Shown piece by piece: positions 4,897-39,630 of a stretch of DNA of 39,780 nucleotides. Each line of letters opens with the position of its first letter. Position 1 is the first letter of the stretch. Below the pieces are notes generated by a model. It searched no databases. It worked only from the letters and a program-made list of their open reading frames with translations, and was not told the origin of the DNA. Source of the DNA: a virus; the UHGV virus genome UHGV-1378608. One strand, given 5' to 3'. Made by a program: the position numbers and the translations under genes.

Positions 4897-4911
4897 TTAC
4901 CTTTCAGGTGA
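4897..4911 (+). promoter_or_regulatory. Operator-like palindrome TTACCTTTCAGGTGA (TTACCT-N4-GGTAA family, 1 mismatch)
   Basis: Member of a recurring inverted-repeat motif; lies about 40 bp upstream of the LexA box. Confidence 0.4.
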
Positions 4912-4948
4912 TTCGCAAAACGTGCTGGATAGCAAACAAATTATTTGC

Positions 4949-4968
4949 TACTGTATATTTATACAGTT
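4949..4968 (+). promoter_or_regulatory. LexA (SOS) box TACTGTATATTTATACAGTT
   Basis: Perfect CTGT-N8-ACAG with AT-rich centre, near-identical to the E. coli consensus TACTGTATATATATACAGTA; 20 bp upstream of the ATG at 4988, with GGAGA RBS at 4975-4979. Confidence 0.75.
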
Positions 4969-4987
4969 ATTGCTTGGAGAAGATAAG

Positions 4988-5245
4988 ATGCAGCAGTATC
5001 ACTATCCACTGGAAGACGGATTTACCGAAAGGATTCACACGCCGGGAGGCGTCAGGTCACTGGTGGAGGGATCGCACTTGATGAAATTACTCCGGGCTCT
5101 CGATAAGGATGGATTTAATGTCGATGGCCCACTTGCCGAACTGACTGCACTGATTAACTACGTCACCAGCTCACAGATGTCTATGCAGGATCTGCAAACA
5201 CATCTCGACTATTGTGCCGAACAATTACGAAAACAAATCAGGTAA
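4988..5245 (+). CDS. Small LexA-controlled moron protein (85 aa), candidate SOS-inducible antirepressor
   Basis: In-frame internal ATG of ORF 4880-5245 preceded by RBS and LexA box; the ORF-track start at 4880 would place the LexA box and RBS inside coding sequence. No confident family match by eye. Confidence 0.5.
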   Translation: MQQYHYPLEDGFTERIHTPGGVRSLVEGSHLMKLLRALDKDGFNVDGPLAELTALINYVTSSQMSMQDLQTHLDYCAEQLRKQIR

Positions 5246-5252
5246 ATTTAAG

Positions 5253-5268
5253 GGCCGCGAAAGCGGCC
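5253..5268. other. GNRA-tetraloop hairpin ggccgc-gaaa-gcggcc
   Basis: 6-bp perfect stem with GAAA loop just 3' of the LexA-controlled gene and 1 nt before the 12-bp palindrome; no strong T-run on either strand. Confidence 0.4.
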
Positions 5269-5269
5269 T

Positions 5270-5281
5270 GTGACATGTCAC
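5270..5281. repeat. Perfect 12-bp palindrome GTGACATGTCAC (copy 1 of 3; 14-bp TGTGACATGTCACA here)
   Basis: Exact palindrome recurring at 22503-22514 and 25578-25589, each in an intergenic position. Confidence 0.6.
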
Positions 5282-5288
5282 ACTCAAG

Positions 5289-5429
5289 CTATGACAAACC
5301 TATGTACCCTGCTACACCAGATAATATCAAAACAACTGCTACAGCAAATTCACCGTCTTCAATGATACATTTACGATTCATAACGCCAAGGGCAACAAGC
5401 ACAAATACAACAAGAATAAAAGCAATCAT
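5289..5429 (-). CDS. Small hydrophobic peptide (46 aa, MIAFILVVFVLVALGVMNRKCIIEDGEFAVAVVLILSGVAGYIGLS)
   Basis: Not in the ORF track (under 60 aa); ATG at 5429 with AGGA 7 nt upstream; two hydrophobic segments; sits right after the 824-aa virion protein gene. Confidence 0.3.
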   Translation of the reverse strand: MIAFILVVFVLVALGVMNRKCIIEDGEFAVAVVLILSGVAGYIGLS

Positions 5430-5438
5430 TTCTCATCC

Positions 5439-7913: not shown

Positions 7914-7918
7914 TTAAT

Positions 7919-19520: not shown

Positions 19521-21196
19521 TGTGATTGCCCACCCTGACCACTAACTGCATTCGCCATAGCTGACAAAACACTCGGATCCGAAGTTTTAGCTTCGCTTAG
19601 CGTCTTGGCCCCCTGTGCCGCCGCCATCCCCATCGCCATCATTTGTTGCTGCTGTTGCTGCTGTGCCCGTTGCTGGCGAGCCTGCTCAACCTGTTCCTGC
19701 GGAACAATGACGGTTGGAGACACTCCGGACATATCAGCGAATGCATCGATCGCCTGATCAACGTTGAGTTTGTCGAGAGCTTCTGGTTTCGCTTGCGCAA
19801 GTTGACCAATGAAGTTAACCGTGGACGCCAGACTGGACAGGCCGATAGACTTCTGCGCCTGAGCCATGACGGAAATGTATTCGACCTTCAGGGGCATGCC
19901 TTCCATCGCGTCAGGCGGTGGCGGCAGCATGTTTTTACGCACCATCATCGAGAAAGCGCGATCAATGAGAGGATTAAGACATTCGTCGTTCAGACGCTCC
20001 AGAACCGGCCCCAACATCAGAAGTTTTTCTTCTTTCATTTCGATCACCGCTTCAACAGGCATCGAGCGGGTATTGATGTTCTGCAACATCATGAACAGAT
20101 CGACAAAGTAGGCGCTGTTAATGATTTGGCGAGTGTCCTGAATGTCTGCCACCAGATCTGCTGTACTGGGGTTAACCAGATAAGCAGGCCTGAAACCATC
20201 CTGACCAGTAATCTGATCGATATACGTGATGTCGCCAGGAAGAAGGGAGGCGCGCTGATTCTTGAGGGAAGTCGGAGCAACCATCGGCGGATTGGTGGCT
20301 TTATCAATCAACTGCGACTTGCGCTTCTGGAGAAGCTGCAATGCCTTAACAGGTCCAAGCGCCAGCATACCCGGGCATGATGATCCATAAACATCTTCGC
20401 CGTTAACTTCCCAGCGCGGAGCCATAATTGGAAACTCATCGAATCCGGACTCACGCAACAACTTGTCGTTATCGCCACCAACCTCGTAATAAACCGATTT
20501 GAATGGCTTGTTCTTGCTATCCAGCTTCGATGTATCGCGGTCAATGTTCGGGTAAACCGAATGCATCACTTCGATCCACTTCTCGTAGGTGCCGCTTTCC
20601 CACATGCTTTTTACGGATTCGCTGACGTTATTTAGCCCGAACTCCTGAACAAGCTGACGAACAGTCATAGAGAACTTGCGAAAACAGGTGTCAACACTGC
20701 CACGAGGTGAGTTAGCCAGGTAGTAACTGCCTATCGGGAATGGCATTGTGCGAATGATGTCCTCATCATCCTCCAGTACCGCCATTGCACCGGTGCTGTA
20801 TGTGCCGAGGCTTCCGTATAACTGCGGCAGCGACTGATAGAGATTCGACTTATTGAACATATCGTTCATGCGGTTCTGCACCGCCTCAAGCCACAACTTA
20901 ACAGGGCCATAATCCATCATTTCAGGATCTGGCGTAGCCAGGCGAAACCACGGACGCGCGGGGCTTGTGATGCCTGACATCATGCCGCTGGCGAGAGTGC
21001 GCGCCGCCATAGTCCCGGTCGAATCAATAATGCGTGTATTGCGTCGATCGTTACGGTTGACCTCAGAAGTCAGAAAGCGGGAACCACGCGGGTTGATGTA
21101 ATCACTCAACTCGCGCCAGTGCGGCTCGAACGACTGACGCTCGCTTTCAAGTTGTGCGAACTGTTTGTTCAATCGCTCTTTAGTTGTTTCCGCCAT
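19517..21196 (-). CDS. Portal (head-to-tail connector) protein, 559 aa
   Basis: Size and position after terminase; Gln/Ala-rich C-terminus. Confidence 0.65.
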   Translation of the reverse strand: MAETTKERLNKQFAQLESERQSFEPHWRELSDYINPRGSRFLTSEVNRNDRRNTRIIDSTGTMAARTLASGMMSGITSPARPWFRLATPDPEMMDYGPVKLWLEAVQNRMNDMFNKSNLYQSLPQLYGSLGTYSTGAMAVLEDDEDIIRTMPFPIGSYYLANSPRGSVDTCFRKFSMTVRQLVQEFGLNNVSESVKSMWESGTYEKWIEVMHSVYPNIDRDTSKLDSKNKPFKSVYYEVGGDNDKLLRESGFDEFPIMAPRWEVNGEDVYGSSCPGMLALGPVKALQLLQKRKSQLIDKATNPPMVAPTSLKNQRASLLPGDITYIDQITGQDGFRPAYLVNPSTADLVADIQDTRQIINSAYFVDLFMMLQNINTRSMPVEAVIEMKEEKLLMLGPVLERLNDECLNPLIDRAFSMMVRKNMLPPPPDAMEGMPLKVEYISVMAQAQKSIGLSSLASTVNFIGQLAQAKPEALDKLNVDQAIDAFADMSGVSPTVIVPQEQVEQARQQRAQQQQQQQMMAMGMAAAQGAKTLSEAKTSDPSVLSAMANAVSGQGGQSQ

Positions 21197-21417: not shown

Positions 21418-21507
21418 ATCAATGACTCCGTACGCAATTAAATTATTACCAATTTAACCATATATGATTTATTTATCGTAGGTAGTTGACATTTAACGCA
21501 CAAATTA

Positions 21508-21522
21508 TTACCTTTAAGGTAA
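21508..21522 (+). promoter_or_regulatory. Operator-like palindrome TTACCTTTAAGGTAA
   Basis: Perfect TTACCT-N4-GGTAA site in the non-coding gap between the late genes and the tRNA; a TTGACA hexamer lies at 21486-21491. Confidence 0.45.
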
Positions 21523-21845: not shown

Positions 21846-21922
21846 GTGGCATTAGCTCAGTTGGACAGAGCAACCGCCTTCTAAGCGGTTGGTCGCAGGT
21901 TCGAATCCTGCATGCCACGCCA
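21846..21922 (+). tRNA. tRNA-Arg, anticodon UCU
   Basis: 77 nt; acceptor stem GTGGCAT/ATGCCAC, D-arm GCTC-AGTTGGACA-GAGC, anticodon stem ACCGC/GCGGT with loop CTTCTAA, T-arm GCAGG-TTCGAAT-CCTGC, discriminator G and encoded CCA. Confidence 0.85.
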
Positions 21923-22502: not shown

Positions 22503-22514
22503 GTGACATGTCAC
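22503..22514. repeat. Perfect 12-bp palindrome GTGACATGTCAC (copy 2 of 3)
   Basis: Exact repeat of the palindrome at 5270 and 25578; 5 bp after the stop of the Gp49-like gene. Confidence 0.6.
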
Positions 22515-22612: not shown

Positions 22613-22627
22613 TTACCTTAAAGGTAG
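22613..22627 (+). promoter_or_regulatory. Operator-like palindrome TTACCTTAAAGGTAG (1 mismatch)
   Basis: TTACCT-N4-GGTAA family member about 30 bp upstream of the 22658 ATG. Confidence 0.4.
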
Positions 22628-22657: not shown

Positions 22658-23398
22658 ATGCTTGAATCACTTAAAGAATACCTATCTTCAACCGTTAATA
22701 CCGCTGCGCAAAGGGTCAGAAATCCAGTGTTTGGAGCGTTCGCACTGTCATGGTGCGCCTTTAACTGGAAGTCGATTTTATACTTACTCCTCAGCGACTC
22801 CAGCATCATCGACAAGATCACCTACATTTCCAGCAATAGCAGTTGGAAAACGGTATTAGCATTCCCATGTGTTTCAGCAATAATCCTGTGCGGCGGCATG
22901 CCCTGGATCAACAACGTGATTTCAAAGTGGCAAGCCAAACCTCTTGATAATTACGATTCGATAGAGAACCACCGGAAGGCCAAGCGCATTCATCGCGCCA
23001 CACGCCTGCAGCGCCTGAAGGCAAAGCACGATGTGACATACGACAAAGTTAAGACTGGCGCCGAAAAGGACATACAGGCTATGAAGGAAAGAATTACGGA
23101 GTCACAGGCCAGGATGGGTGAGCTAACGTCGGAAAGAGATAGGCTCTCCGATAAGGTTTTGGAATTGAATAAGAAGCTGGAAAACATGCAATCAGTGGCT
23201 GCAGCGTTAAAGATTGAGGCAGAAAAGTCCGCCAGAATGCTTGAAGATAGGGAGGCCAAAATAAATAATCTCATACAAGAATTAAAGGAAAAAGAAAAGG
23301 AAAGTATCGTATTGCATATGGGCCATGAACCCTTGCGAAAAACATATACATCACAGGCTGAGAGAATGATTGCTGAAGCCGTGAAAAATAAGCAATAA
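22658..23398 (+). CDS. Membrane-anchored coiled-coil protein (246 aa), moron of unknown function
   Basis: N-terminal hydrophobic segments, then a long charged heptad-like region; visibly AT-rich coding sequence; opposite strand to flanking late genes. Confidence 0.5.
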   Translation: MLESLKEYLSSTVNTAAQRVRNPVFGAFALSWCAFNWKSILYLLLSDSSIIDKITYISSNSSWKTVLAFPCVSAIILCGGMPWINNVISKWQAKPLDNYDSIENHRKAKRIHRATRLQRLKAKHDVTYDKVKTGAEKDIQAMKERITESQARMGELTSERDRLSDKVLELNKKLENMQSVAAALKIEAEKSARMLEDREAKINNLIQELKEKEKESIVLHMGHEPLRKTYTSQAERMIAEAVKNKQ

Positions 23399-23399: not shown

Positions 23400-24875
23400 T
23401 CACGCAAACGGGTCGTAATCTGTGATGGCCTTGCCTTGCTGGTTCTGCTGACCGGGAATTCGCAGGCGCTTCGACACAGGGAAAGCAAACGTCAGCAATA
23501 GCGCATCGCCTTTCCCCGGCGAACGCCCAAGTCGTTCTTTGATATCTTCCTTCGGTTCGATAACGATTTTACCGTCCACGCGAACTTTGTACTCTGCCGT
23601 CGACAGGTCGTCCGCTGTTTCCTGGTCATCCAGCATACCGCCCAGCCTCAGCCATGTCTTACATGAGTTGAACATCTCCCCACGCTTGTTGAGCATCTGC
23701 GGGTCAGTAGACGCGCCACCGAACGGAACAAGTTGCCATGTCCTGCCCCAGCCGTCACCGATGGACTTCAGCCCGGTGCCGTAACCGAAGTCGATGAACA
23801 CCGCGTCAGCCTGGTACTGGTCTTCAAAGTCGGCGATTCGCTTAGCCATAATCAAATCGTCGGTGGTCTTGTTGCCGGTCCAGAGCACTTTGCTGTGCAG
23901 CCCCTGCCGCAGGTATATCACCGCGTCATCAACTCCGGAATACGCCGGGTCGACGCCGATAATCACAGGAGCGTGAGCAACCTGCCCGGCGGTAACCACC
24001 CGCTTCATGGCCTCGTCTGTAAGGCCTGTTGGGATAAACTGGAGTTCTGACGCGTCAGGGAAGATCCCCCGCACGCGGACCTTCACGAAGTCGCTGTCTT
24101 CCCCGTAGTCATCAACCCATTTCTGCAACTGCTGTTTGTTAGTGCCTTCCACCGTCCGGCTGTCAATCTGCGCAGTTTTCCAGCGGTGTTTATATTTGCG
24201 GAAACATTCGCGGAAACGCCCGGTATTACGCGTCGGGTTCCCGAACGCCACCCAGATGATTTCGGTGTCTTCGTCCGTAAGCGCACCCTCAGCAACTTCC
24301 CACACCAGATCCGCAATGTTCGACGCTTCATCGAATACCACGATGATGCGTTTGCGCTCGTTGTGTAGTCCGGCGAATGCCTCAGTGTTGTGCTCAGACC
24401 AGGGTATTGCGTCAGCCCGCCACCGCTTGTCGTGCCCAGGATCATTGCTGTACATCGCGGTAGCGGTACAGGTAAACCAGTCTTTCGTGATGGCAAGGTT
24501 CGACCACTTGATAATTTCCGGCCAGGTCTTCGTTCGTAGCTGGTTGTCGGTGTTGGCGGTCACCACGACCTTACAATCCTCGCAAGTGGACATGCCCCAG
24601 TTGATCAGCATTGAGATGAATGCGGATTTACCAATACCGTGACCAGAAGCGCGTGCCAGCATAAGCGGCTGATAGCGCGTCTCTGGATTCTGCAGGTGAT
24701 CACGTATCTCTCGGAACGCATCGGCCTGCCACTGACGTGGACCGGTGGCATGTGCCAGTTCAGTACCCTCTTCCCCCCACGGGAACGCATAGAGGGCATA
24801 GCCAAGCGGATCGTGAGTGAACCCTGCAATATCCTCGATCAACTGCTCTTCAGGAGATAACGCTGTATCTGTCAC
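23400..24875 (-). CDS. Terminase large subunit
   Basis: 491 aa; Walker A-like LARASGHGIGKS, ATPase N-half and nuclease C-half with conserved acidic residues; follows small subunit with overlap. Confidence 0.85.
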   Translation of the reverse strand: MTDTALSPEEQLIEDIAGFTHDPLGYALYAFPWGEEGTELAHATGPRQWQADAFREIRDHLQNPETRYQPLMLARASGHGIGKSAFISMLINWGMSTCEDCKVVVTANTDNQLRTKTWPEIIKWSNLAITKDWFTCTATAMYSNDPGHDKRWRADAIPWSEHNTEAFAGLHNERKRIIVVFDEASNIADLVWEVAEGALTDEDTEIIWVAFGNPTRNTGRFRECFRKYKHRWKTAQIDSRTVEGTNKQQLQKWVDDYGEDSDFVKVRVRGIFPDASELQFIPTGLTDEAMKRVVTAGQVAHAPVIIGVDPAYSGVDDAVIYLRQGLHSKVLWTGNKTTDDLIMAKRIADFEDQYQADAVFIDFGYGTGLKSIGDGWGRTWQLVPFGGASTDPQMLNKRGEMFNSCKTWLRLGGMLDDQETADDLSTAEYKVRVDGKIVIEPKEDIKERLGRSPGKGDALLLTFAFPVSKRLRIPGQQNQQGKAITDYDPFA

Positions 24876-25468
24876 TGATTACCATCCTGACGTTCTTTGA
24901 GTCGCTTCCTGGCTGCTGCTATGCGATCAGCAATTGTCACATTCACATTAACATCCAGGCGTTCTTTGAATGCGTTGACGTCGACGTGCTTACCAATCAG
25001 TTCTAGGTTCTTCACCTTGTCAGGCCATTTAATTTTTTTGAGGATTGTCTCTATCGAGTCCTCGTTCATGTTCATGATGGTCGATGACAGATCAAAGCCG
25101 CTAAGCGTAGTGCGCCATATTTTCGGCCACTCGCGGATTGGCTTAAGACTCCCATCGTCGTTGAGGATATCAATCACGTCCATCTGGTCGATCTCCACCA
25201 GGCGCATGAGAACGTAATCAGCACTGACGCGCATTCGTTTGTTGCGCTCCTCCATCAACTCGGCAATCCGTTTTTTAATGCGTTCATCACGCATCATGAC
25301 ACTGGCTTTAACTGCCGCTGTATTTGGGGAGAATCCTGCGTTAATCGCTGCCTGAGTCTGGTTTTCAGGCGTTTTGATGTATGACTGGCAATAAGCCTCC
25401 TGCATTGCTGTTAGTGGCTTAAATTGCGTTGATTTGCGTTTATAGGTTTTAGGTTCAGCAGACATCAT
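24872..25468 (-). CDS. Terminase small subunit
   Basis: Likely start at MMSAEP (25468) with GGTGG RBS; the ORF-track N-terminal extension to 25546 runs through a terminator hairpin and direct repeats and is probably not coding. Confidence 0.7.
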   Translation of the reverse strand: MMSAEPKTYKRKSTQFKPLTAMQEAYCQSYIKTPENQTQAAINAGFSPNTAAVKASVMMRDERIKKRIAELMEERNKRMRVSADYVLMRLVEIDQMDVIDILNDDGSLKPIREWPKIWRTTLSGFDLSSTIMNMNEDSIETILKKIKWPDKVKNLELIGKHVDVNAFKERLDVNVNVTIADRIAAARKRLKERQDGNQ

Positions 25469-25475
25469 AACCACC

Positions 25476-25509
25476 GTGGTAATAGTTACCGTTGTGGTAA
25501 TAGTACCAT
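25476..25509 (-). promoter_or_regulatory. Tandem direct repeats GTGGTAATAGT(T)ACC x2 immediately upstream of the terminase small subunit (candidate late promoter/activator site)
   Basis: Two adjacent copies, each also an inverted arrangement GGTAA-TAG-TTACC, between the terminator and the TerS start. Confidence 0.35.
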
Positions 25510-25510
25510 G

Positions 25511-25537
25511 CAAAATAAAGCCGCCATAGTTGGCGGC
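25511..25537 (-). terminator. Rho-independent terminator separating the early-left operon from the packaging genes (minus strand)
   Basis: Stem gccgcca/tggcggc with 4-nt loop, followed on the minus strand by TTTATTTTG. Confidence 0.55.
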
Positions 25538-25577
25538 AGTATTCAAAACCCATCAAATTCATCATGCATAATCTAAT

Positions 25578-25589
25578 CGTGACATGTCA
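25578..25589. repeat. Perfect 12-bp palindrome GTGACATGTCAC (copy 3 of 3)
   Basis: Overlaps the stop codon of the 113-aa Cys-rich gene, about 110 bp upstream of the TerS start. Confidence 0.6.
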
Positions 25590-25928
25590 CACTATTAATT
25601 TCGTTTCATGCCAGCCTTTAGTCACCCAGCATTGCAAGTCACCATTACACGGACATGAATTAACTGGAACTCTCTCGCCGCACTTACCGCAACATTTTCT
25701 GCTGATCGATTTTATACGCCCGCGCACGCGTGCATCATCCTGGCGGATCAGTAACGCTATATACTCACCAAATTCGTAAGGCGCACGCCCGGGGCGACGC
25801 GTGGCACAGTTACGCTCCAGCATTTCAATTTCCTGAGCATCAAGCACAATTTCCAGCTTACGCACACCAGATGCAGCTTGTCTGGCTCTCTGAGCGGCTT
25901 TGCGCTCTGCTGCTGATTTAGCCATCAA
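25587..25928 (-). CDS. Cys-rich (zinc-ribbon-like) basic protein, 113 aa; candidate late-gene regulator
   Basis: Basic helical N-half and C-terminal CCGKCGERVPVNSCPCNGDLQC; last gene before the late operon. Confidence 0.4.
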   Translation of the reverse strand: MMAKSAAERKAAQRARQAASGVRKLEIVLDAQEIEMLERNCATRRPGRAPYEFGEYIALLIRQDDARVRGRIKSISRKCCGKCGERVPVNSCPCNGDLQCWVTKGWHETKLIV

Positions 25929-29851: not shown

Positions 29852-29866
29852 TTACCTCTAAGGTAA
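29852..29866 (+). promoter_or_regulatory. Operator-like palindrome TTACCTCTAAGGTAA
   Basis: Perfect TTACCT-N4-GGTAA site 4 bp upstream of the minus-strand ATG at 29848. Confidence 0.45.
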
Positions 29867-29913: not shown

Positions 29914-29928
29914 TTACCTCATAGGTAA
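29914..29928 (+). promoter_or_regulatory. Operator-like palindrome TTACCTCATAGGTAA
   Basis: Second perfect site in the same intergenic gap, about 60 bp from the first. Confidence 0.45.
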
Positions 29929-29965: not shown

Positions 29966-30766
29966 TTACTTGATAAATCCTGCCGCCTTTCCCCGCCTGT
30001 ATTCCTCCATCAGCCACTGCGCCGGTGTTATTCCCCCAAGGGTGGCGGCGTTAGGCATGCACCCGAAACTTCGCCCTGGTGGATGGTAAACGTCTCTCCC
30101 TGTGTCCGGAGGTGTACTCATGGGCTCTGGCTTTGCCTGTATGCTGATCACCGGATCGGGTATCTGCTGTCCGGAAGCCACCTTTTTCGCCCAATCATCG
30201 AGCAGCCTGCGCGCGTGTTTCTCAACCTCAATCTCGCTAAGCTGGCGCTGATACATTGCACGGCGGGTATCACATACGACCCAGTACATAACCGGATGCC
30301 GCCACGGGAATCTTTCGGGACCACCAGGATATAAACTTTTTTCCTTGCTGTACCGGTGAAACTCCGCCATCACATCGTCAATGGTGACGCCAAGAACCAT
30401 CTTGCTGTCTTTGCACCACTTGATGAATTGCCCTGGCGACGGCCAGAACGGAGATTCACTGGCGCGGGCGTGGCGCATACCAGCAGAAACCTGTTCACGG
30501 GTTCGGATCCCACCTTCGGCAAACGCAGCAATCCACTGCTGTTTTGCAGCGACTTCCTGCTCTGGCGTCTTCAGGTTGGTTACCACTGCCGCCGGAAACA
30601 GTTGTTTCAGCTGTTTGAAAAGGGCATCAACAAGCCTCTCTGCTGACATGTTCACCACGTTGTCATTGTTGGTGTACTGATGCTCATAACCTGACATGCG
30701 AGAAAGGGCTTCTCCGTCACGGTTTTGTATCGCGGTAAAAACGTTGTTCACAAGAAATCCTCCCAT
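29966..30766 (-). CDS. Replication protein P-like (lambda P family helicase loader)
   Basis: Collinear similarity to lambda P as I recall it: QWIAAFAEGGIRTREQVSAGMRHAR, FWPSPGQFIKWC, SLYPGG..FPWRHPVMYWVV, IPDPV. Confidence 0.7.
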   Translation of the reverse strand: MGGFLVNNVFTAIQNRDGEALSRMSGYEHQYTNNDNVVNMSAERLVDALFKQLKQLFPAAVVTNLKTPEQEVAAKQQWIAAFAEGGIRTREQVSAGMRHARASESPFWPSPGQFIKWCKDSKMVLGVTIDDVMAEFHRYSKEKSLYPGGPERFPWRHPVMYWVVCDTRRAMYQRQLSEIEVEKHARRLLDDWAKKVASGQQIPDPVISIQAKPEPMSTPPDTGRDVYHPPGRSFGCMPNAATLGGITPAQWLMEEYRRGKAAGFIK

Positions 30767-31563
30767 GCTTCAGGGCTGTTCCAGTGCGGAACGTTGTTAT
30801 CAGGTAATGTTGATTGCTTCTGTCTGCTAATCTGCAGCCGCCTTGCCAGCTTCTGCTCCCACTGTGCCTGATGGTATGCCTTACCCTCAGCCATCCAGTA
30901 AATTCTGAACTCTGCAAGTTCCTGTGCCGTTGGCAGACTGTCCAGGTAGATCCCCTGCAATGAGCTTTTCCGAAGAAAGTCATCTGATGGCTGCCATTGT
31001 TCATGCATGACAAATTTGCCTAATTGCCCTGGCCCACCAGGAGGAACAAAGTTATTCATCACGGCGTTGTTTGCGCCGGGGTCATGAGGCACAGAATCCC
31101 CGCTTTTTGTCCTGCTCTCCCTCTCTTGGTTAAATGACTGGTTATATGACTGGTTCTGGATCCCGTTTTTGGGATCATTCAACATCCCGTTTTTGGGATC
31201 ATTCAACATCCCGTTTTTGGGTATATTCCCGTTTTCGGTAACATTACCGTTTTCGGGTTCATTACCCCCTTCCCGGTTGCCTTTAATGTTCCCGTTTTTG
31301 GTTATATTAAGAGAGAAAACCCGCACTCTTTTCGTCGCTCCCTTTCTCTCTCCGGTATCTGAAATAAGCCCCATTTTCATGAGCGATATAAGCCCGGCCT
31401 GCACGGTTTTTTTGTTCAGGCAAGTGTCTTTAACGAGGCGTTCTATGCTGGGGTAGCAGAGGTTATATTCATCGGCTCTGTCAGCCATCGAGAGCAGTAT
31501 GAGCTTTAATGACGAGCTACCTGGATCTGTCTCCCAGGCCCAATCTGTTGCATGTCTGCTCAT
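30748..31563 (-). CDS. Replication initiator O-like protein with internal iteron-containing origin
   Basis: N-terminal winged-helix-like DNA-binding region; central Asn/Gly-rich repetitive segment encoded by DNA iterons; immediately upstream of the P-like gene. Confidence 0.65.
   Translation of the reverse strand: MSRHATDWAWETDPGSSSLKLILLSMADRADEYNLCYPSIERLVKDTCLNKKTVQAGLISLMKMGLISDTGERKGATKRVRVFSLNITKNGNIKGNREGGNEPENGNVTENGNIPKNGMLNDPKNGMLNDPKNGIQNQSYNQSFNQERESRTKSGDSVPHDPGANNAVMNNFVPPGGPGQLGKFVMHEQWQPSDDFLRKSSLQGIYLDSLPTAQELAEFRIYWMAEGKAYHQAQWEQKLARRLQISRQKQSTLPDNNVPHWNSPEAWEDFL
31158..31310. repeat. Origin-like iteron array (about 6 copies of ATCCCGTTTTTGGGATCATT-like repeat) with GATC sites
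   Basis: Two exact 24-bp tandem copies atcccgtttttgggatcattcaac followed by diverged copies (cccgttttcggtaacatt, accgttttcgggttcatt, ttcccgtttttggttatatt) and an AT-rich stretch. Confidence 0.65.
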
Positions 31564-31859: not shown

Positions 31860-31874
31860 TTACCTTTGAGGTAC
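31860..31874 (+). promoter_or_regulatory. Operator-like palindrome TTACCTTTGAGGTAC (1 mismatch)
   Basis: Between the tR1-like terminator and the next minus-strand gene. Confidence 0.4.
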
Positions 31875-31907: not shown

Positions 31908-31929
31908 TACAGAGGGTTGTAGCTGGATA

Positions 31930-32160
31930 TCATGAGTAGAAGAAGTATGCCAGTTCTGCTTTTGAGCGCAGCCATTGTCTTGTTTTACAGGCTTTAAAAA
32001 GCCCATTCATCAATACTTTACCTGGCATTTTGCGCTTACCTGTTAAGTGAGTCTGGATATAGTGACTCGTCGTTCCGGCTTCCTGTGCGAAGGCTTCACG
32101 CTCATCCGGAGTAAGTGCAAGCCAGTGCTTTTTGAAATCGAAATGTTCGTTATCGCTCAT
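31930..32160 (-). CDS. Cro-like HTH regulator (76 aa)
   Basis: Small protein with HTH-like segment REAFAQEAGTTSHYIQTHL; first gene of the leftward operon, divergent from the repressor gene. Confidence 0.5.
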   Translation of the reverse strand: MSDNEHFDFKKHWLALTPDEREAFAQEAGTTSHYIQTHLTGKRKMPGKVLMNGLFKACKTRQWLRSKAELAYFFYS

Positions 32161-32185
32161 AGCTATTGCCTGATATTTATTTCAG

Positions 32186-32214: not shown

Positions 32215-32259
32215 AAATCAAGGATAGTTACCTATGGGGTGCATTTACCTGTTGGGTAA
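32197..32259. promoter_or_regulatory. OR-like tripartite operator (three TTACCT-N4-GGTAA-type sites)
   Basis: Sites at 32197-32211 (tcacccataaggtaa), 32228-32242 (degenerate) and 32245-32259 (ttacctgttgggtaa, perfect) in the divergent region between the Cro-like and repressor genes. Confidence 0.55.
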
Positions 32260-32314
32260 TATTGCTTTAAATTGAATCATCTACTGATTCATATATGAGG
32301 CGATTTTCCAGAAA

Positions 32315-32899
32315 ATGAAAAGTATCCAGGACGTCCGCAGGCAAAATCTCAACGACTTGATCGACCGTGAATTCAATGGTGTTCAGACGCGGATGGCAGA
32401 AAAACTTGGAACTCAGGCAAATCTGGTAAACCGCTGGGCTCTTGGCAAGAAGGTTATCGGCGACCAGGTTGCGCGAAAAATTGAAGCTGCCGCCAATAAA
32501 CCACGTAACTGGCTTGATATCGATCGCTCGCTTTCTCAGGAAGGTTTTCAGCCTGTCGGCCCGAGCGATATAGGTCAGCTGGCGGCTCACAACCTGGAAC
32601 GCTGGATGAGCGAAAGCCGCGACCTTTCAACACAGGGAAAACTTCACCGCGCATCCGGCGTCGCCCAGGTGACAATCAGCCGCCTGTTAAACAATGAAGT
32701 CAGCGTTTCCATTTCCACCCTGGAGAATGTTGCATCCGCATTCGGGCGTCACGGCTATGAATTACTGATTCACCCGCACGACCCTGCGACTATCAACTAT
32801 GATCGCTCGCGCTACGCATTGTTACCTGAAACAGAGAAGGCAAAGATCGAAAGTTACATTGAATTTGTCATCAACCAGAACGAAAAAAGCAAACAATAA
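32315..32899 (+). CDS. Phage repressor candidate, tandem XRE-type HTH, no recognisable S24 peptidase domain
   Basis: 194 aa; two HTH-like segments (VQTRMAEKLGTQANLVNRW and GVAQVTISRLLNNEVSVSISTLENVASAF); transcribed from the OR-like region toward the OL-like region, as lambda cI is. Confidence 0.55.
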   Translation: MKSIQDVRRQNLNDLIDREFNGVQTRMAEKLGTQANLVNRWALGKKVIGDQVARKIEAAANKPRNWLDIDRSLSQEGFQPVGPSDIGQLAAHNLERWMSESRDLSTQGKLHRASGVAQVTISRLLNNEVSVSISTLENVASAFGRHGYELLIHPHDPATINYDRSRYALLPETEKAKIESYIEFVINQNEKSKQ

Positions 32900-32920
32900 A
32901 ATCATATTTTTCAGTAAGTA

Positions 32921-32946
32921 AGCCGCCTCATGGCGGCTTTTTTATT
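32921..32946 (+). terminator. Rho-independent terminator after the repressor gene
   Basis: Stem agccgcc/ggcggct followed by TTTTTTATT. Confidence 0.6.
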
Positions 32947-32956
32947 GCCTATGCGA

Positions 32957-33033
32957 TTACCTTATGGGTAATTTTTTTAACTCATATCTATTGACATCAA
33001 ACCAGATACGCATAATTATTACCTCAACGGTAA
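32957..33033 (+). promoter_or_regulatory. OL/PL-like region: two perfect operator palindromes flanking a TTGACA -35 hexamer
   Basis: ttaccttatgggtaa (32957-32971), TTGACA (32991-32996), AATTAT-like -10 about 17 bp downstream, ttacctcaacggtaa (33019-33033) overlapping the -10/+1 region. Confidence 0.55.
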
Positions 33034-33052
33034 CAGACCGAGGTAACAAGTT

Positions 33053-33202: not shown

Positions 33203-33210
33203 GTTAGCAA

Positions 33211-34245: not shown

Positions 34246-34246
34246 G

Positions 34247-35370: not shown

Positions 35371-36308
35371 GCAACGACATCGCAAACATCAACGCACCAG
35401 TAGACACAGCAATCGCTGGAACTGCTGCAACTATTTTCAGCCCAGACGGCTTGAACCAACTGATGAAATTCGCCGAGGTAATGGCGCAAAGCCGCGTAAC
35501 GGTACCGGCGCACCTCGCCGGGAAACCAGCTGATTGCATGGCCGTGGCAATGCAGGCTGCGCAGTGGGGAATGAACCCGTTTGCCGTGGCTCAGAAAACC
35601 CATGTTGTGAACGGCACGCTAGGTTATGAAGCCCAATTAGTAAACGCAGTTATCTCAACGATGTCGCCAACAAAAGATCGCATCAACTACGAGTGGTTTG
35701 GGCCGTGGGAACGCGTGATCGGTAAGTTTGTTGAGAAAACATCCAAAAACGGCAATCCATATATCGCACCAGGCTGGACTCTAAAAGACGAAGAAGGCTG
35801 CGGTGTTCGCGTATGGGCAACCATGAAGGGCGAGGATCAACCTCGAGTGCTTGAGTTAATGCTGTCTCAAGCACAGGTAAGAAACTCCACACTTTGGGCC
35901 AGTGATCCGAAACAACAACTCGCATACCTTGCGACAAAACGCTGGTCTCGCCTGCACTGTCCTGACGTAATCATGGGCGTCTACACCCCAGACGAATTAC
36001 AGGAAACGGCACCGCGCGTTGAGCGAGACATTACTCCGCAAACGACAACTGCTGCGGGAATGAACAGTCTGATCAACGCTAAAACAGTGAAAAAGCCTGA
36101 TGAGCAAACGCGTAAAGCGGATAGCCGTGATCCAGAAGAAATGCTGATGGCCTTTACCAGCGCAGCGATGAATTACAGCACTGTCTCCGAACTGGATAAG
36201 GCTTACAAATACATTGCACAAAAACTTTCAGATGATGACGAACTGCTGGCAAAAGCCACCGACGTTTACAGCGTTCGTCGGGAAGAATTAAACGAAACAT
36301 CTATGTAA
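35367..36308 (+). CDS. RecT-family single-strand annealing recombinase
   Basis: Synteny with the exonuclease (ATGA overlap); size and composition consistent with RecT; start taken at MSNDIANINA. Confidence 0.6.
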   Translation: MSNDIANINAPVDTAIAGTAATIFSPDGLNQLMKFAEVMAQSRVTVPAHLAGKPADCMAVAMQAAQWGMNPFAVAQKTHVVNGTLGYEAQLVNAVISTMSPTKDRINYEWFGPWERVIGKFVEKTSKNGNPYIAPGWTLKDEEGCGVRVWATMKGEDQPRVLELMLSQAQVRNSTLWASDPKQQLAYLATKRWSRLHCPDVIMGVYTPDELQETAPRVERDITPQTTTAAGMNSLINAKTVKKPDEQTRKADSRDPEEMLMAFTSAAMNYSTVSELDKAYKYIAQKLSDDDELLAKATDVYSVRREELNETSM

Positions 36309-36357
36309 CCACCACCGCGGCGCCACGCGCGCCGCACTGCAACCAAGAGAGGTATTT

Positions 36358-36606
36358 ATGAAAGGTGCATTAGGTAAGAAGGAACTCCTGGCGGTGGTGC
36401 CACTGTCATGGAGCACTATCGACCGTATGGAGCGCGCAGGTGAATTTCCTAAACGCTGGTATATCACTGACAAACGCTGCGCATGGAACCGTGACGAAGT
36501 TGAGCGTTGGCTTGATGAACGTCAGGCAGCAAGCCCGGCAGAGTTCCAGGGTAAAAAGCCTCCTGTTCAGCAACGTGTATATCGTCCTGTGAGCAACGCT
36601 GCATGA
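36358..36606 (+). CDS. AlpA-family DNA-binding protein, candidate excisionase
   Basis: 82 aa; pattern STIDRMERAGEFPKRWYITDKRCAWNRDEVERWL resembles AlpA/Xis-like regulators. Confidence 0.55.
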   Translation: MKGALGKKELLAVVPLSWSTIDRMERAGEFPKRWYITDKRCAWNRDEVERWLDERQAASPAEFQGKKPPVQQRVYRPVSNAA

Positions 36607-36715
36607 GTGCGCTGCTAAGGCACTGGAGCAAATGGTCAGGATGGTACTTATTCCTGGCCTCTGTTTCAGCATGGCTTTATCTGCTGGCATTAATTTTCAG
36701 AGAGGGTTGGATTAA

Positions 36716-37015
36716 GTGAGAAAGTTAAGCCGACTTGAAAAATATCACATGAACAAGGTTTCAATGCGCAGCCCTTCAAAGATTGTCGCCGTTACTCCTG
36801 CGGCGATAGAGATCGAAAAACGCGCGATTGAAAGAGAGAAAAAAGGGCAATTCCGCATTGCCGCTCACCTTTGGCTTCAGTGTATGGATGTTGCTTCTGG
36901 TGATGTTGAACGTGCAAGGATCGCGGTTCGCAGGGACCAATGTATCACAAAAGGTAACGGCCTTCGCCGTGGCGACTATAGCGGCATAGGATGTTGTGGG
37001 GTGGTTTATGACTAA
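36716..37015 (+). CDS. Hypothetical protein (start uncertain)
   Basis: ORF immediately upstream of the methyltransferase; no family recognised. Confidence 0.35.
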   Translation: MRKLSRLEKYHMNKVSMRSPSKIVAVTPAAIEIEKRAIEREKKGQFRIAAHLWLQCMDVASGDVERARIAVRRDQCITKGNGLRRGDYSGIGCCGVVYD

Positions 37016-37658
37016 GAAATACACACTAATCTATGCAGATCCACCCTGGGTATACCGGGACAAAGCCGCAGATGGTAATCGCGGTGCCAGTTTTAAATAT
37101 CCGGTTATGAGTGTGATGGATATCTGCCGCCTTCCTGTGTGGGATTTGGCCGATGAAAACTGTCTGTTGGCCATGTGGTGGGTGCCAACACAACCACTCG
37201 AAGCGCTAAAAGTTGTTGAAGCCTGGGGATTCCGTCTGATGACCATGAAGGGCTTCACGTGGATAAAATGTGGTAGTCGACAACCAGATAAACTGGTTAT
37301 GGGTATGGGGCACATGACTCGCGCCAATAGTGAAGATTGCCTGTTTGCGGTAAAGGGAAAGCTACCTACGCGCATTAATGCAGGGATCGTTCAGTCATTT
37401 ACCGCACCGCGGCTTGAGCATTCAAGAAAACCAGATATCGTTCGTGAAAAACTTGTGCAATTGTTAGGCGATGTTTCTCGCATTGAACTGTTCGCCCGCC
37501 AGACGTCTCATGGCTTCGATGTTTGGGGTAATCAGTGCGAAGACCCGGCAGTGCAACTACACCCTGGATACGCGTTGGATATTGGCGGATTAACAAATGC
37601 ATTCAGCAATGCTCCGGTGTCACCAATAGACAACCAGGGGCGGGAGCGTGCAGCATGA
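37008..37658 (+). CDS. MT-A70-family N6-adenine DNA methyltransferase
   Basis: DPPW catalytic motif ([10 protein letters not shown]); start taken at ATG 37008 (MTKKYT) rather than the GTG at 36996. Confidence 0.75.
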
Positions 37659-38314
37659 ACCTATATCAACGCATCAATGGCGCTGACTGGTGCAATATCT
37701 TCGTCGTCGGCGATCTGCATGGGTGCTACACGCTGCTGATGAACGAACTCGACAAAGTTTCATTCGACCCGGCGCGCGATTTACTTATTTCCGTTGGTGA
37801 CCTTGTTGACCGCGGCGCTGAAAACGTCGAATGCCTGGATTTGATTACTATGCCGTGGTTCCGAGCTGTTCGTGGCAACCATGAGCAGATGATGCTGGAT
37901 GCACTGGTCAACGGCGGAAGTTTCGGACATTGGATGTCAAACGGCGGTGGATGGTGGCACCAACTTGATTCTGAGCAGGATGTGCAACTCAAATACCTTC
38001 TGCCAAAGATTACCAACCTCCCGATGATTATCGAACTGGTTACCGGCAATAAGAAGGTCGTCATCTGTCACGCAGACTACCCGCACAACGAATACGCATT
38101 CGATAAGCAAGTACCAGAAGAAATGGTGATATGGAATCGTGAGCGGGTTAGCGACGCGCAGGACGGTATTGTCTCGGAGATAACCGGTGCCGATTTGTTC
38201 ATCTTCGGTCATACGCCAGCACATCACCCACTGGTGTATGCAAACCAGATGTACATCGACACCGGCGCAGTGTTCTGCGGAAATCTGACGCTTACCAAAG
38301 TCCAGGAAGGATAG
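37655..38314 (+). CDS. Ser/Thr protein phosphatase (lambda-type metallophosphatase)
   Basis: Metallophosphatase motifs GDLHG, GDLVDRG, GNHE; start MNLYQRING overlaps the methylase stop. Confidence 0.75.
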
Positions 38315-38316
38315 AA

Positions 38317-39573
38317 TTATTTATTACTGTCTTCCATCCACCTCTCAAACTTCGACGGGGAGAACGGAATCAGATCCGTATGCTCCCCGTTAATCCAGGA
38401 ATCAATCATATCGGCCCACTGCTGCAACATGTAGGCGCGCTGTCTGGCGTATTCCGCTTTGTTATATACGGCGCGCACACCTTTCTGCTCATGTGCCAGA
38501 GCCTTTTCAATCCAGTCTGAAGGATAACCAGCCTCATGCAACAACGTACTTGCTGTACGGCGCATATCGTGTACGGTGAAGTCCTGAATATGCTCACCAT
38601 CTTCATTTATTATTTTCACCGTTCTGTCGATCAGAGAGTTCAGCGCGGCATTAGATAATGGCTTCCGGAAATTGTAACGACCAGGAACCAGATATTCACT
38701 TCCACCAGCGCACATCTGCAACCCAACCAATATATCCTGTGCCTGTTTAGGCAGGTAAATAACGTGCGCCCGGCTTCCCTTCATGCGGTCTGGAGGAATT
38801 GTCCATGTCCATTTTTTAAAATCTATTTCATCCCACGTTGCATTGGTGAATTCGCCCTTACGAACCATAGTGATAAGCACCAGTTTTAAAGCCATTTTCA
38901 TAGTGCCCATAGCACCAATGGCATCCAGCGTGCGGAAGAACAGGCCAATTTCTTCTGGTGTCAGTGTTCGCTCTCGTGGTTTAAATATGGCGATAGACGA
39001 AGGTTTAATGTCAGCCGCAGGATTAAACAAACCATGACCACGGTCATTGGCGTGACGGTATACGCTACTGATGATCTCCCTGGCCTGCACTGCTGTTGCC
39101 CGGCCACCGCGTTCGACAATCCGGTCACACAAATCACGAACCATCGATGTGGTAATTTCAGCCATCATTTTATTGCCAAGAACCGGAAGTATGTCACGGT
39201 CGATCACCGCCTGTTTCATTGCGCGGGTACTGTCAGCCAGGATGACGTGTTTCATATAACTGTCGGTATGTACCGCAAACGTCTCGGCACCACGAATCTT
39301 TTTGATACCGTCACGTTTAGCCGCAGCCGGTGACTGGCCTGCTTTAAGCAGCTTCTTTGCAGCAATCAGTTCTTCTCGCGCTTCTGCCAGGCTGATACCG
39401 TCACGCCCATACTGCCCGATTACCAGTGTTTCGCGGCGACCGTTGATACGGTAGTCATAGCGAAACGAGACCGTGCCTGACGTAAGCACAGCTACATACA
39501 GCCCGTCACGATCGGAGACCTTGTACAGTTTGTCCTGCGGCTTGAGGCTTTTTAATTTTGTATCGGTAAGCAC
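38317..39573 (-). CDS. int: Tyrosine integrase
   Basis: 418 aa; N-terminal arm-binding-like domain and C-terminal catalytic domain (HDMRRTASTLL, ALAHE, terminal Tyr region); adjacent to right attachment repeat. Confidence 0.85.
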   Translation of the reverse strand: MLTDTKLKSLKPQDKLYKVSDRDGLYVAVLTSGTVSFRYDYRINGRRETLVIGQYGRDGISLAEAREELIAAKKLLKAGQSPAAAKRDGIKKIRGAETFAVHTDSYMKHVILADSTRAMKQAVIDRDILPVLGNKMMAEITTSMVRDLCDRIVERGGRATAVQAREIISSVYRHANDRGHGLFNPAADIKPSSIAIFKPRERTLTPEEIGLFFRTLDAIGAMGTMKMALKLVLITMVRKGEFTNATWDEIDFKKWTWTIPPDRMKGSRAHVIYLPKQAQDILVGLQMCAGGSEYLVPGRYNFRKPLSNAALNSLIDRTVKIINEDGEHIQDFTVHDMRRTASTLLHEAGYPSDWIEKALAHEQKGVRAVYNKAEYARQRAYMLQQWADMIDSWINGEHTDLIPFSPSKFERWMEDSNK

Positions 39574-39615
39574 AATTCACCCGTATAGAAACCATTTTCA
39601 TGACGGTATGAGAGT

Positions 39616-39630
39616 ATACCTTTAAGGTAA
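39616..39630 (+). promoter_or_regulatory. Operator-like palindrome ATACCTTTAAGGTAA upstream of int, nested in a longer inverted repeat
   Basis: Flanked by tgacggtat (39601-39609) and ataccgtca (39630-39638); about 45 bp upstream of the int start. Confidence 0.45.

Follow-up and report, generated by a model that had tools for sequence, protein, structure and literature searches.

Dispersed TTACC-N5-GGTAA palindromes in a Uetakevirus prophage as probable operators of its immunity repressor

The DNA analysed here (the window, 39,780 bp) is a complete Uetakevirus (phiV10/epsilon15-like) prophage with a 17-bp att core at its bounds. Its genes and sites of interest are collected in Table 1. In a Pfam search, Rep shows a YdaS/Cro-like HTH at residues 21-61 and HTH_3 at residues 106-147, and no S24 peptidase domain was found. 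The protein begins with a DNA-binding HTH, continues with a middle domain that is again HTH-like, and ends in a tail for tetramerisation and Ant binding. It matches SPC32H Rep (PDB 5D50) over the full length with an E value of 3.5e-42 and is 99.5% identical to phiV10 gp40 and ZX5 ORF21. The small cro-like regulator encoded divergently from rep is without a match in the Pfam search; it is 77% identical to SPC32H_042 and 58-84% identical across the genus.

Table 1. Palindromic sites, promoter elements and genes in the window
Feature	Position	Strand	Basis or remark
Site in divergent ant/tail-fibre control region	4897-4911		Motif scan; alignment A1
LexA box CTGTATATTTATACAG	4951-4966		Perfect; directly upstream of ant; conserved in 6/6 aligned phages
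ant, small antirepressor, 85 aa	4988-5245	+	88% identity to SPC32H Ant, E 5e-56; PHROG 450
Single perfect site, gp3 region	21508-21522		Motif scan; alignment A2
Site in spacer of predicted promoter ATGACC-17-TAGAAT	22613-22627		Motif scan
terS pair	25468-25482 and 25486-25500		18 bp apart; half-sites TTACCA, TTACCG
Second module, downstream operator (predicted)	29852-29866		Ends 3 nt before DUF1064 ATG
Second module, upstream operator (predicted)	29914-29928		Module on minus strand, downstream of replication gene P
Single post-cro operator (predicted)	31860-31874		After cro terminator (31908-31889, minus strand)
cro-like small regulator	31930-32160	-	PHROG 35 'transcriptional repressor', E 5.7e-13
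OR site nearest cro, TCACCCATAAGGTAA	32197-32211		Motif scan
OR middle site, degenerate, TTACCTATGGGGTGC	32228-32242		2 mismatches
OR site nearest rep, TTACCTGTTGGGTAA	32245-32259		Motif scan
rep, prophage repressor	32315-32899	+	Pfam HTH_3, YdaS/Cro-like HTH, SPC32H Rep match
OL upstream operator (predicted)	32957-32971		19 nt before -35 of leftward-operon promoter
PL-like promoter TTGACA-17-AATTAT	32991-33019	+	10/12 consensus matches, best in region
OL downstream operator (predicted)	33019-33033		Overlaps end of -10 and expected transcription start
int, tyrosine integrase	38317-39567	-	Synteny and annotation in relatives
Site near int, ATACCTTTAAGGTAA	39616-39630		About 50 bp upstream of int, within attP arm

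A scan with TTACCNNNNNGGTAA at up to one mismatch gives 14 matches in the window, against 0.59 ± 0.84 expected from 100 dinucleotide-preserving shuffles, the highest of which contained 4. The stricter TTACCTNNNNGGTAA, the form in which an earlier note on this DNA had described the repeat, occurs at 6 perfect sites (9 strand matches vs. 0.00 expected). On a gene map taken from annotated relatives, intergenic DNA makes up only 6.6% of the window, yet it holds 13 of the 14 matches (binomial P = 6.5e-15). The remaining match, at 2700, falls within the tail-fibre gene and is probably due to chance. A-C-C is unchanged in 28 of 28 half-sites, and position 6 is T in 19 of them. In the alignments with relatives (A1 and A2), the dyad cores form conserved islands while the spacers vary. 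These data support the view that the TTACC-N5-GGTAA palindromes are one dispersed family of regulatory sites. The repeat reported in the earlier note is confirmed as real, and every copy in its list is present, including the degenerate one at 32228; the list had left out the pair upstream of terS.

The note had placed three copies between the divergent cro-like and repressor genes, two around a promoter after the repressor gene, and others upstream of the int, zinc-ribbon and DUF1064 genes, and all of these were confirmed. In the three-site OR region, the predicted promoter of cro (TTGTTA-17-TATTAT, 32214 to 32186 on the minus strand) has the copy nearest that gene within its spacer. The middle copy has perfect syntenic counterparts in epsilon15, SPC32H, and Klebsiella phage BUCT711, located 17 bp from the rep-proximal site, and the spacing of the trio (17 + 31 bp) is conserved in relatives (17 + 30 bp). 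Directly behind the rep terminator (32920-32939), two dyads flank the PL-like promoter, which is predicted to drive recombination, xis-like, and methylase genes. Their centre-to-centre distance of 62 bp is kept in all relatives examined (63 in BUCT711). The 62-bp spacing of the second module is likewise conserved in all relatives; here the upstream operator is followed after 19 nt by the promoter TTGATT-17-TTTAAT (minus strand), and the GAGG of the downstream operator also serves as the DUF1064 ribosome-binding site. The single post-cro dyad is followed after 19 nt by the promoter TTGATC-17-CAAAAT, which serves the zinc-ribbon, DnaT-like, and P genes. It is shared with phiV10, phiv142-3, UTME-9, EC.W1-9, Tyrion, and BUCT711, and at up to one mismatch it is absent from epsilon15 and SPC32H.

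The dyad at 4897 occupies an intergenic region that heads the tail-fibre/lysis operon as well as ant, and its core appears in alignment A1 (6 phages) as a conserved island beside the LexA box. The gene behind it, previously interpreted as a moron, turned out to be the antirepressor gene ant. Kim and Ryu (2013) reportedly found that LexA represses ant. In the window, the tail-fibre and lysis genes run co-linearly and no site was found upstream of the lysis genes; a site is present in those relatives that carry an opposite-strand insert (oac or serotype-conversion genes) before the lysis genes. This pattern fits one operator set per transcription unit. The 21508 dyad separates the gp3-portal structural operon (minus strand, ATG 21417) from tRNA-Arg(UCU) and a Gp49-family gene (plus strand), with a plus-strand TTGACA 16 nt upstream of the site. 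In alignment A2 its core is kept, the spacer is variable, and the tRNA-side DNA is not alignable. The dyad at 22613 precedes a plus-strand gene of unknown function (22658-23398, 246 aa), and both the site and the gene occur in E. coli UTME-9 too. The terS pair, which overlaps the ribosome-binding site, is preceded on the minus strand by a terminator (25537-25520) and followed by the terS ATG (25465). Its 18-bp spacing is kept in phiV10, phiv142-3, UTME-9, EC.W1-9, Tyrion, and epsilon15.

We consider it likely, with a probability of about 0.8, that the 15-bp palindromes are operators of the immunity repressor Rep, which is of the SPC32H/epsilon15 type. They are probably shared between Rep and the small Cro-like protein. 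The dyads lie in promoter spacers (the cro promoter and 22613), over the -10 or start (33019 and 29852), or on a leader (terS), i.e., in positions that fit repression. The same core, loci, and spacings (62, 18, OR) recur in Escherichia, Enterobacter, Klebsiella, and Salmonella relatives, also in those whose Rep proteins are only 43-78% identical. CI and Cro of lambdoid phages bind common operators, and one can imagine that the dyads serve mainly the Cro-like protein, or both proteins equally, the dispersed copies being used for lytic-phase down-tuning and not for lysogenic silencing. The HTH-like stretch AGTTSHYIQ.HLT of the Cro-like protein is invariant across the genus and, together with the identity range given above, fits an invariant dyad core more closely than does Rep, which is more divergent. 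However, the Rep stretch NLVNRW, a candidate recognition helix, is likewise invariant across relatives; since both HTHs are equally invariant, covariation cannot separate the two binders. Besides the missing Pfam match, data on related repressors make this reading improbable. Later papers that summarise the SPC32H work describe Rep as a tetramer that binds palindromic sites, takes its DNA-binding pairs from different dimers, and is inactivated by Ant (PMC9638917; PMC9986798). Overexpression of ZX5 ORF21 alone blocked lytic growth, abolished free phage, and cut the endolysin and holin transcripts by >99.9% (PMC9782041).

A more restricted scheme would count as working operators only the clusters at OR (three sites), OL (two), and DUF1064 (two), with the int, gp3, ant/tail-fibre, 22613, 31860, and terS copies being weak, vestigial or devoted to another role. 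We regard it as possible but rather doubtful. The gp3 and tail-fibre dyads are situated roughly 30-50 bp upstream of a conserved promoter-like block, which is unusual for simple occlusion. The terS half-sites carry atypical bases at position 6 in place of the T of TTACCT, and the pair, given its overlap with the ribosome-binding site, could be a packaging or translational signal; the post-cro copy is the one missing from epsilon15 and SPC32H. Inverted repeats (GACGGTA and TACCGTC) enclose the int dyad, the attP arm around them is strongly conserved, and the dyad could be one element of an Int/Xis arm-site array. Its assignment to Rep appears the least secure of all, because the epsilon15 record calls the 10-mer flanking this site integrase-binding. 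Nevertheless, the isolated copies are syntenic across four Rep subtypes while their spacer letters are free to vary, and the 22613 copy sits squarely inside a promoter spacer. The annotators of epsilon15 named the terS (first copy), gp3, and tail-fibre equivalents repressor sites. In addition, a tetramer with two DNA-binding pairs can loop to distant single sites (PMC9986798).

It is very unlikely that the motif belongs to another factor (a host regulator, or a PerC-like, AlpA-like or 113-aa gp49-like protein) or is a recombination sequence at module boundaries. In phiv142-3, UTME-9, and EC.W1-9, extra copies flank exchangeable accessory cassettes with BRO-N antirepressors or the YafO toxin, which would agree with such a role, as would the differing gene content between dyads among relatives. 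Yet the copies are packed most densely and most regularly at the rep/cro switch and immediately behind rep, a separate palindrome, GTGACATGTCAC, is available for another regulator, and in the flanking E. coli chromosome of L002 the motif does not occur over about 6 kb. To our knowledge, no E. coli regulator has a TTACC-N5-GGTAA consensus.

If the palindromes are indeed Rep operators, one pair of Rep N-terminal domains would read one dyad, the middle domain would dimerise, and the C-terminal tail would form the tetramer, so that one tetramer could hold two dyads. This would fit the three-site OR, the two 62-bp modules, and the 18-bp terS pair. Each 62-bp pair, spanning roughly six turns of the helix, brackets its promoter (PL or the DUF1064 promoter); single dyads stand at the remaining transcription-unit heads, namely the post-cro replication promoter, gp3/portal, ant/tail fibre, the 246-aa accessory gene, and int. 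Rep would occupy each of the peripheral sites and repress the adjoining promoter. In the lysogen, Rep would then directly shut almost every promoter, including those for packaging, structural genes, and int. Upon DNA damage, LexA would leave the box before ant, and Ant would strip Rep from the DNA; since Rep is without an S24 domain, induction would proceed without RecA cleavage. A 2023 paper remarks that the structural repression mechanism of Rep 'has not been extensively characterized' (PMC9986798). The earlier note proposed that one protein coordinates immunity, integration, and morons. A single repressor-type protein is indeed the best explanation; its scope, however, would extend to every transcription unit, because the terS pair and the gp3 site bring in the packaging and structural units.

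That note also judged the layout far more dispersed than that of lambda. Dispersed it is, but not new in kind, because the epsilon15 RefSeq record (NC_004775.2) already labels seven copies of the core 'protein_bind repressor / lysogeny', as predictions from Kropinski et al. 2007. The operator set described here is thus a correct but ordinary rediscovery. Epsilon15, of the same genus, shares with the window the core, the 62-bp and 18-bp spacings, and the syntenic copies: those of terS, gp3, and ant/tail fibre, those that follow the repressor gene (OL), and those preceding the gene that comes after the replication module. Its record marks 7 of roughly 14 intergenic copies (at terS, gp3, ant/tail fibre, OL, and ruvC) and leaves the OR trio and the int copy unmarked. 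The two phages differ in that the epsilon15 repressor is only 43% identical and its half-sites favour TTACCA, whereas those of the window favour TTACCT; the window has the post-cro copy and the copy before the 246-aa gene in addition and lacks the lysis-cassette copy.

The SPC32H work (Kim & Ryu 2013; Kim et al. 2016) deals, as summarised in later papers, with the Rep-Ant switch itself (PDB 5D50, 5D4Z) and not with a genome-wide site set, whereas the window is known from sequence. The two phages have in common a full-length homologous Rep, a closely similar Ant, ant beside the tailspike gene, a LexA box before ant, and dyads at the same loci. The window Rep, however, is of the phiV10 subtype, 43% identical, and of the two phenylalanines at the tetramer interface, one is replaced by Tyr (SYIEF vs. 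SFINF in SPC32H). The C1 operators of P1, the conserved inverted repeats (CIRs) of phiC31, and the gp71 stoperators of mycobacteriophage L5 are systems in which one repressor uses many dispersed short intergenic sites. As in the window, these sites are genome-wide and not just two beside the repressor gene. The repressor families are unrelated, though, and P1 and L5 sites are asymmetric, the L5 stoperators being orientation-dependent elongation blocks, whereas the window has palindromes placed at promoters, many of which form pairs of fixed spacing. Lambda resembles the window in that three operators separate its divergently transcribed repressor and cro genes and that a second operator cluster follows the repressor gene, at the leftward early promoter. 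It differs in that its OL consists of three tandem operators, not of a dyad on each side of the promoter, and in that the window Rep is without the S24 autocleavage domain, a LexA-controlled antirepressor being the proposed route of induction. The window goes beyond lambda with predicted operators also at int, replication, packaging, structural units, and ant. If this is true, Rep silences nearly all promoters directly, and not only two early ones as in lambda.

The window was scanned for TTACCNNNNNGGTAA with at most one mismatch, and 14 matches were obtained against 0.59 ± 0.84 in dinucleotide-preserving shuffles, while the stricter TTACCT form occurs at six perfect sites versus 0.00 expected. 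Thirteen of the 14 matches fall in intergenic DNA, which amounts to 6.6% of the window (P = 6.5e-15) on a gene map transferred from annotated relatives. The bases A-C-C are unchanged in 28/28 half-sites, and position 6 is T in 19/28. The only coding match, at 2700 in the tail-fibre gene, was dismissed as a chance occurrence, with ~0.6 expected. These data bear out the earlier note, which had described a repeated, intergenic palindrome spread more widely than the two operator loci of lambda: all eleven of its coordinates and its degenerate copy at 32228 are present, and nine separate loci carry sites. Its placement also proved right for the three-site cluster between the divergent cro-like gene and the repressor gene rep, for the two dyads flanking a TTGACA promoter behind rep, and for the sites upstream of the int, zinc-ribbon and DUF1064 genes; the list itself stood except that it overlooked the pair upstream of terS (Table).

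The 17-bp sequence ATTGAGTGGGAATGATT, reported as the attP/attB core of phiV10, epsilon15 and ZX5 (PMC9782041), was found at both ends of the window, which is therefore exactly one integrated prophage, attL to attR. Megablast assigned it to the genus Uetakevirus, the immunity region being 98% identical to that of Escherichia phage phiv142-3 and ~98% to those of phiV10, ZX5 and others. A related E. coli lysogen carries the prophage at the 3' end of guaA.

The prophage repressor, Rep, is 99.5% identical to phiV10 gp40 and ZX5 ORF21; overexpression of the latter abolished free phage and lowered holin and endolysin transcripts by >99.9% (PMC9782041). A phmmer search of the PDB aligned residues 1-190 of Rep on 2-197 of 5D50_A, the Rep of SPC32H (E 3.5e-42). 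A Pfam scan revealed two HTH-like regions (HTH_XRE-type matches) and only HTH families, with no Peptidase_S24. According to secondary accounts, SPC32H Rep has an N-terminal DNA-binding, a middle dimerisation and a C-terminal tetramerisation/Ant-binding domain, binds palindromic sites as a tetramer whose DNA-binding pairs come from different dimers, and is inactivated by Ant (PMC9638917; PMC9986798). A 2023 paper describes the repression mechanism of the tetrameric Rep as not well characterised (PMC9986798). The idea that one two-HTH polypeptide reads the dyad as a monomer was excluded, the second HTH-like domain of SPC32H Rep being its dimerisation domain (PMC9986798). The divergently encoded Cro-like regulator (76 aa, PHROG 35) is 77% identical to its SPC32H counterpart. 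Rep identity is 43–78% across four subtypes, and since HTH-like stretches are invariant in both proteins (NLVNRW in Rep, AGTTSHYIQ.HLT in the Cro-like protein), covariation does not tell one from the other. We conclude that the dyads are most likely Rep operators and that the Cro-like protein probably uses them too. What was observed is their enrichment and placement, the protein homologies and the conservation; from these we infer that the peripheral sites are occupied and serve in repression.

Table. Coordinates of operator dyads (named by first coordinate) and neighbouring features in the window, with dyads and annotated sites of related phages
Feature	Coordinates	Strand	Arrangement	Location
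att core	1-17; 39764-39780		ATTGAGTGGGAATGATT	window ends
Conserved block, tail fibre	4846-4870	minus		upstream of tail-fibre gene
Site 4897	4897			between tail-fibre gene (minus) and ant
LexA box	4951-4966		CTGTATATTTATACAG	ant promoter
ant	4988-5245	plus		
Second palindrome	5270-5281; 22503-22514; 25579-25590; 19457 (1 mismatch)		GTGACATGTCAC	
Conserved block, gp3	21445-21469	minus		upstream of gp3
Site 21508	21508			between gp3-portal structural operon (minus) and tRNA-Arg(UCU) + Gp49-family gene (plus)
tRNA-Arg(UCU)	21846-21922	plus		
Site 22613	22613		fills spacer of ATGACC-17-TAGAAT	before 246-aa gene
246-aa gene	22658-23398	plus		
terS, long version	24872-25546	minus	TTG start, 675 bp	
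terS pair	25468 (25468-25482); 25486	minus	terminator 25537-25520, then both dyads, 18 bp apart	directly upstream of terS ATG at 25465
DUF1064 promoter module	29928-29914; 29866-29852	minus	dyad, 19 nt, TTGATT-17-TTTAAT, dyad	after replication gene P
DnaT-like gene	30748-31563			
Tandem repeats	31127-31266		24 bp x 2.6 (100% identical); 18 bp x 3.1; 12 bp x 2.4	in DnaT-like gene
Post-cro site	31874-31860		cro terminator 31908-31889, dyad, 19 nt, TTGATC-17-CAAAAT	before zinc-ribbon/DnaT-like/P genes
Cro-like gene	31930-32160	minus		
OR trio	32197; 32228; 32245			between cro-like gene and rep
rep	32315-32899	plus		
OL pair	32957; 33019		rep terminator, 32957, 19 nt, TTGACA-17-AATTAT, its last base the start of 33019	behind rep
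Int-proximal repeat	39609-39645		GACGGTA-N24-TACCGTC	
Site 39616	39616			~50 bp upstream of int
Extra accessory dyads, related locus L001	5138; 6153			
Extra accessory dyads, related locus L002	1489; 1582; 2622; 4676			
Extra accessory dyads, related locus L006	26831; 27891; 28016			
epsilon15 repressor features	12-27; 2931-2947; 19895-19911; 32479-32494; 32554-32570; 32616-32632; 35906-35922			before terS; before gp3; gp19 (ant homologue)/tail fibre; three behind repressor gene; one before ruvC

Within the immunity region, the predicted cro promoter, TTGTTA-17-TATTAT, has OR site 32197 in its spacer, and the OL dyads lie 62 bp apart, centre to centre. The promoter module of the DUF1064 gene repeats the OL layout, its dyads again being 62 bp apart, and the post-cro site corresponds to the upstream half of such a module, without the downstream dyad. 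Because the DUF1064 ATG lies 3 nt past the second dyad, the operator GAGG serves as the ribosome-binding site of this gene, the right half (A/G)GGT of the dyad being its Shine-Dalgarno sequence as well. The terS dyads reach into the start codon and overlap the terS ribosome-binding site, so that at both loci one DNA carries a transcriptional operator and a translation signal. In the PGAP annotation and the phiV10 record terS starts at an upstream TTG, a version that includes the terminator hairpin and both dyads; since the epsilon15-style ATG (594 bp) fits better, the long version was probably misannotated.

Two further elements were noticed near these loci. A second perfect 12-bp palindrome is present in three copies versus 0.11 expected; each copy stands at the 3' end of a transcription unit, at most ~40 nt from a same-strand intrinsic terminator, and one overlaps the stop codon of a 113-aa gene just upstream of terS. 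It occurs in 8/8 related loci, at syntenic places in those compared, and may be bound by another regulator or serve to control read-through. The tandem repeats in the DnaT-like gene look, by analogy with lambda O, like origin iterons inside a replication-initiator gene.

The 246-aa gene behind site 22613 belongs to PHROG 4780, which has no assigned function, and encodes a predicted coiled coil; Pfam, NCBIfam and PADLOC returned only weak coiled-coil/SMC-like/LmuB-like matches, all below cut-offs. The gene is common to the E. coli UTME-9 prophage and is not in phiV10 or phiv142-3. As a Rep dyad forms its promoter spacer, it is probably a lytic-phase accessory gene and not a lysogenic-conversion moron. 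At site 21508, 338 bp downstream of the dyad and a TTGACA, tRNA-Arg(UCU) is encoded on the opposite strand to the structural genes; no closer promoter is obvious, and hence the repressor may control this tRNA, which reads the rare AGA codon. The divergent tRNA arrangement recurs in SPC32H, and epsilon15 is without the tRNA. The int-proximal dyad sits inside a larger inverted repeat kept in five phages, a 10-mer of which is annotated as an integrase-binding site in the epsilon15 record, and on the attP arm Rep and Int may be either rivals or partners. As the whole region upstream of int is 86% identical, the conservation of its dyad carries little information.

The gene behind site 4897, taken for a moron in the earlier note, turned out to be the antirepressor gene ant: its product is 88% identical to SPC32H Ant, it is divergent from the tail-fibre gene, just as it lies beside the tailspike gene in SPC32H, and its promoter has a perfect LexA box conserved in six phages. 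The observation made in that note is right and its interpretation largely so. Kim and Ryu reportedly found in 2013 that Rep is not cleaved in the SOS response and is inactivated by Ant, LexA repressing the ant promoter. Upon DNA damage, LexA would leave the ant promoter, Ant would be made, and Rep would be released.

Alignment of the ant/tail-fibre intergenic region of six phages (58% mean identity) reveals three conserved blocks: the LexA box; the core of the dyad, whose spacer is free to vary; and, before the tail-fibre gene, a promoter-like block that ends in GGTAATAGAAT. The alignment of the gp3 upstream region also keeps the dyad core, and the DNA on one side of it is not alignable. The tail-fibre and gp3 regions share the block CATATA(T/G)GGTT-N4-(T/G)GGTAATA(G/A)(A)AT, nearly invariant in the six phages, which includes a Rep-like half-site, TGGTAA. 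An exact search of the relatives for the element as it stands in the window, CATATATGGTT-N4-TGGTAATA, gave no match; in both alignments it is kept with small changes. The block resembles a promoter with a good -10, and its poor -35 means that it may be activator-dependent (late). At both genes the dyad lies roughly 30–50 bp upstream of this block, which makes simple occlusion unlikely; the dyad may act there by looping or by interfering with an activator.

The dyads were then sought in eight genomes: phiV10, phiv142-3, the E. coli UTME-9 prophage, EC.W1-9, Enterobacter phage Tyrion (Rep 78% identical to that of the window), Klebsiella phage BUCT711 (44%), epsilon15 and SPC32H (both 43%). Each relative has 13–18 dyads versus 0.4–0.8 expected, at the same loci. 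The 62-bp spacing at PL, the promoter of the OL pair, and at the post-replication-gene promoter is found in every genome scanned (63 bp once, in BUCT711), that of the terS pair is fixed at 18 bp, and OR spacing is 17 + 30 or 17 + 31 bp. A site precedes the lysis cassette where an opposite-strand gene separates it from the tail-fibre gene, namely oac in phiV10, SPC32H and Tyrion and the serotype-conversion genes in epsilon15; in the window, where the two are co-linear, the lysis cassette has no dyad. Tracking the insertion in this way, the site fits one operator set per transcription unit. Extra dyads precede accessory cassettes beside ant in relatives (BRO-N antirepressors, YafO-family toxin), which suggests that the repressor controls these cassettes and that the lysogen does not express them. 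Among the records searched, no heteroimmune relative with a changed motif was found, every Uetakevirus having a Rep homologue and the same core; EC.W1-9 was dropped as a differing relative, its genome being only opened at another point. The cI of Pseudomonas phage PseuP_224 has only the N-terminal domain in common with Rep (39% over residues 4-68); one suggestive TTACC-N4-GGTAA-like site lies 35 bp upstream of it, but the genome shows no enrichment, with 5 matches versus 1.8 expected at 2 mismatches.

With the peripheral sites presumably occupied, the prophage would silence nearly every promoter directly. A more far-reaching possibility, less likely than not at a probability of about 0.35, is that tetrameric Rep directly silences every Uetakevirus transcription unit, with bridging or looping between dyads and possible cross-repression. 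Packaging, structural, int and accessory-cassette promoters would be among those silenced, and two DNA-reading heads would bridge the fixed pairs (18, 48, 62 bp) and loop between distant single dyads. If so, a cassette gaining a dyad would be wired into immunity automatically. Since neither the core nor the candidate recognition helix varies between Rep proteins that are only 43% identical, Escherichia, Enterobacter, Klebsiella and Salmonella phages might cross-repress; specificity would then come from position 6 together with the spacer, or from Ant-Rep pairing, not from the operator core. As annotation, the analysis identifies the immunity circuit, replaces a "moron" with an SOS-controlled antirepressor gene and favours the short terS start. 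The genus-wide operator map, with its fixed 62-, 18- and 17-bp geometries, could guide work on repression by tetrameric Rep.

The window resembles lambda in that its divergent repressor and cro genes have three operators between them. The lambda CI/Cro operators, however, lie at two loci flanking the repressor gene, and the lambda repressor carries a C-terminal S24 autoprotease; with no S24 domain in Rep and operators at nine loci, the switch is not lambda-type. L5 stoperators are asymmetric, have one orientation relative to transcription, and many lie inside transcription units, whereas the sites of the window are palindromic and, in 13 of 14 cases, intergenic, at promoters or leaders, which places them outside the stoperator definition. 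In the P1 C1, phiC31 CIR and L5 systems, one repressor serves many operators dispersed over the genome. The sites of the window are likewise dispersed, and a single protein presumably occupies them; since Rep (HTH_XRE-type matches only) shows no evident relationship to either C1 or the repressor of phiC31, the likeness is a functional analogy only. The SPC32H/epsilon15 Rep-Ant family is matched in each feature compared: the window has a Rep homologue without S24, an Ant homologue, a LexA box and the same operator core at the same loci. In epsilon15, seven RefSeq features are labelled "protein_bind, repressor, lysogeny", and 7/7 contain TTACC-N5-GGTAA; their window counterparts are at terS, gp3, ant/tail fibre, OL and DUF1064. 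The annotators of epsilon15 had thus already predicted the dispersed layout. The discovery value is accordingly small, the motif, repressor assignment and dispersed placement being annotated in epsilon15 and the Rep-Ant-LexA switch characterised in SPC32H: the motif of the window rediscovers what had already been annotated in the group's type phage.
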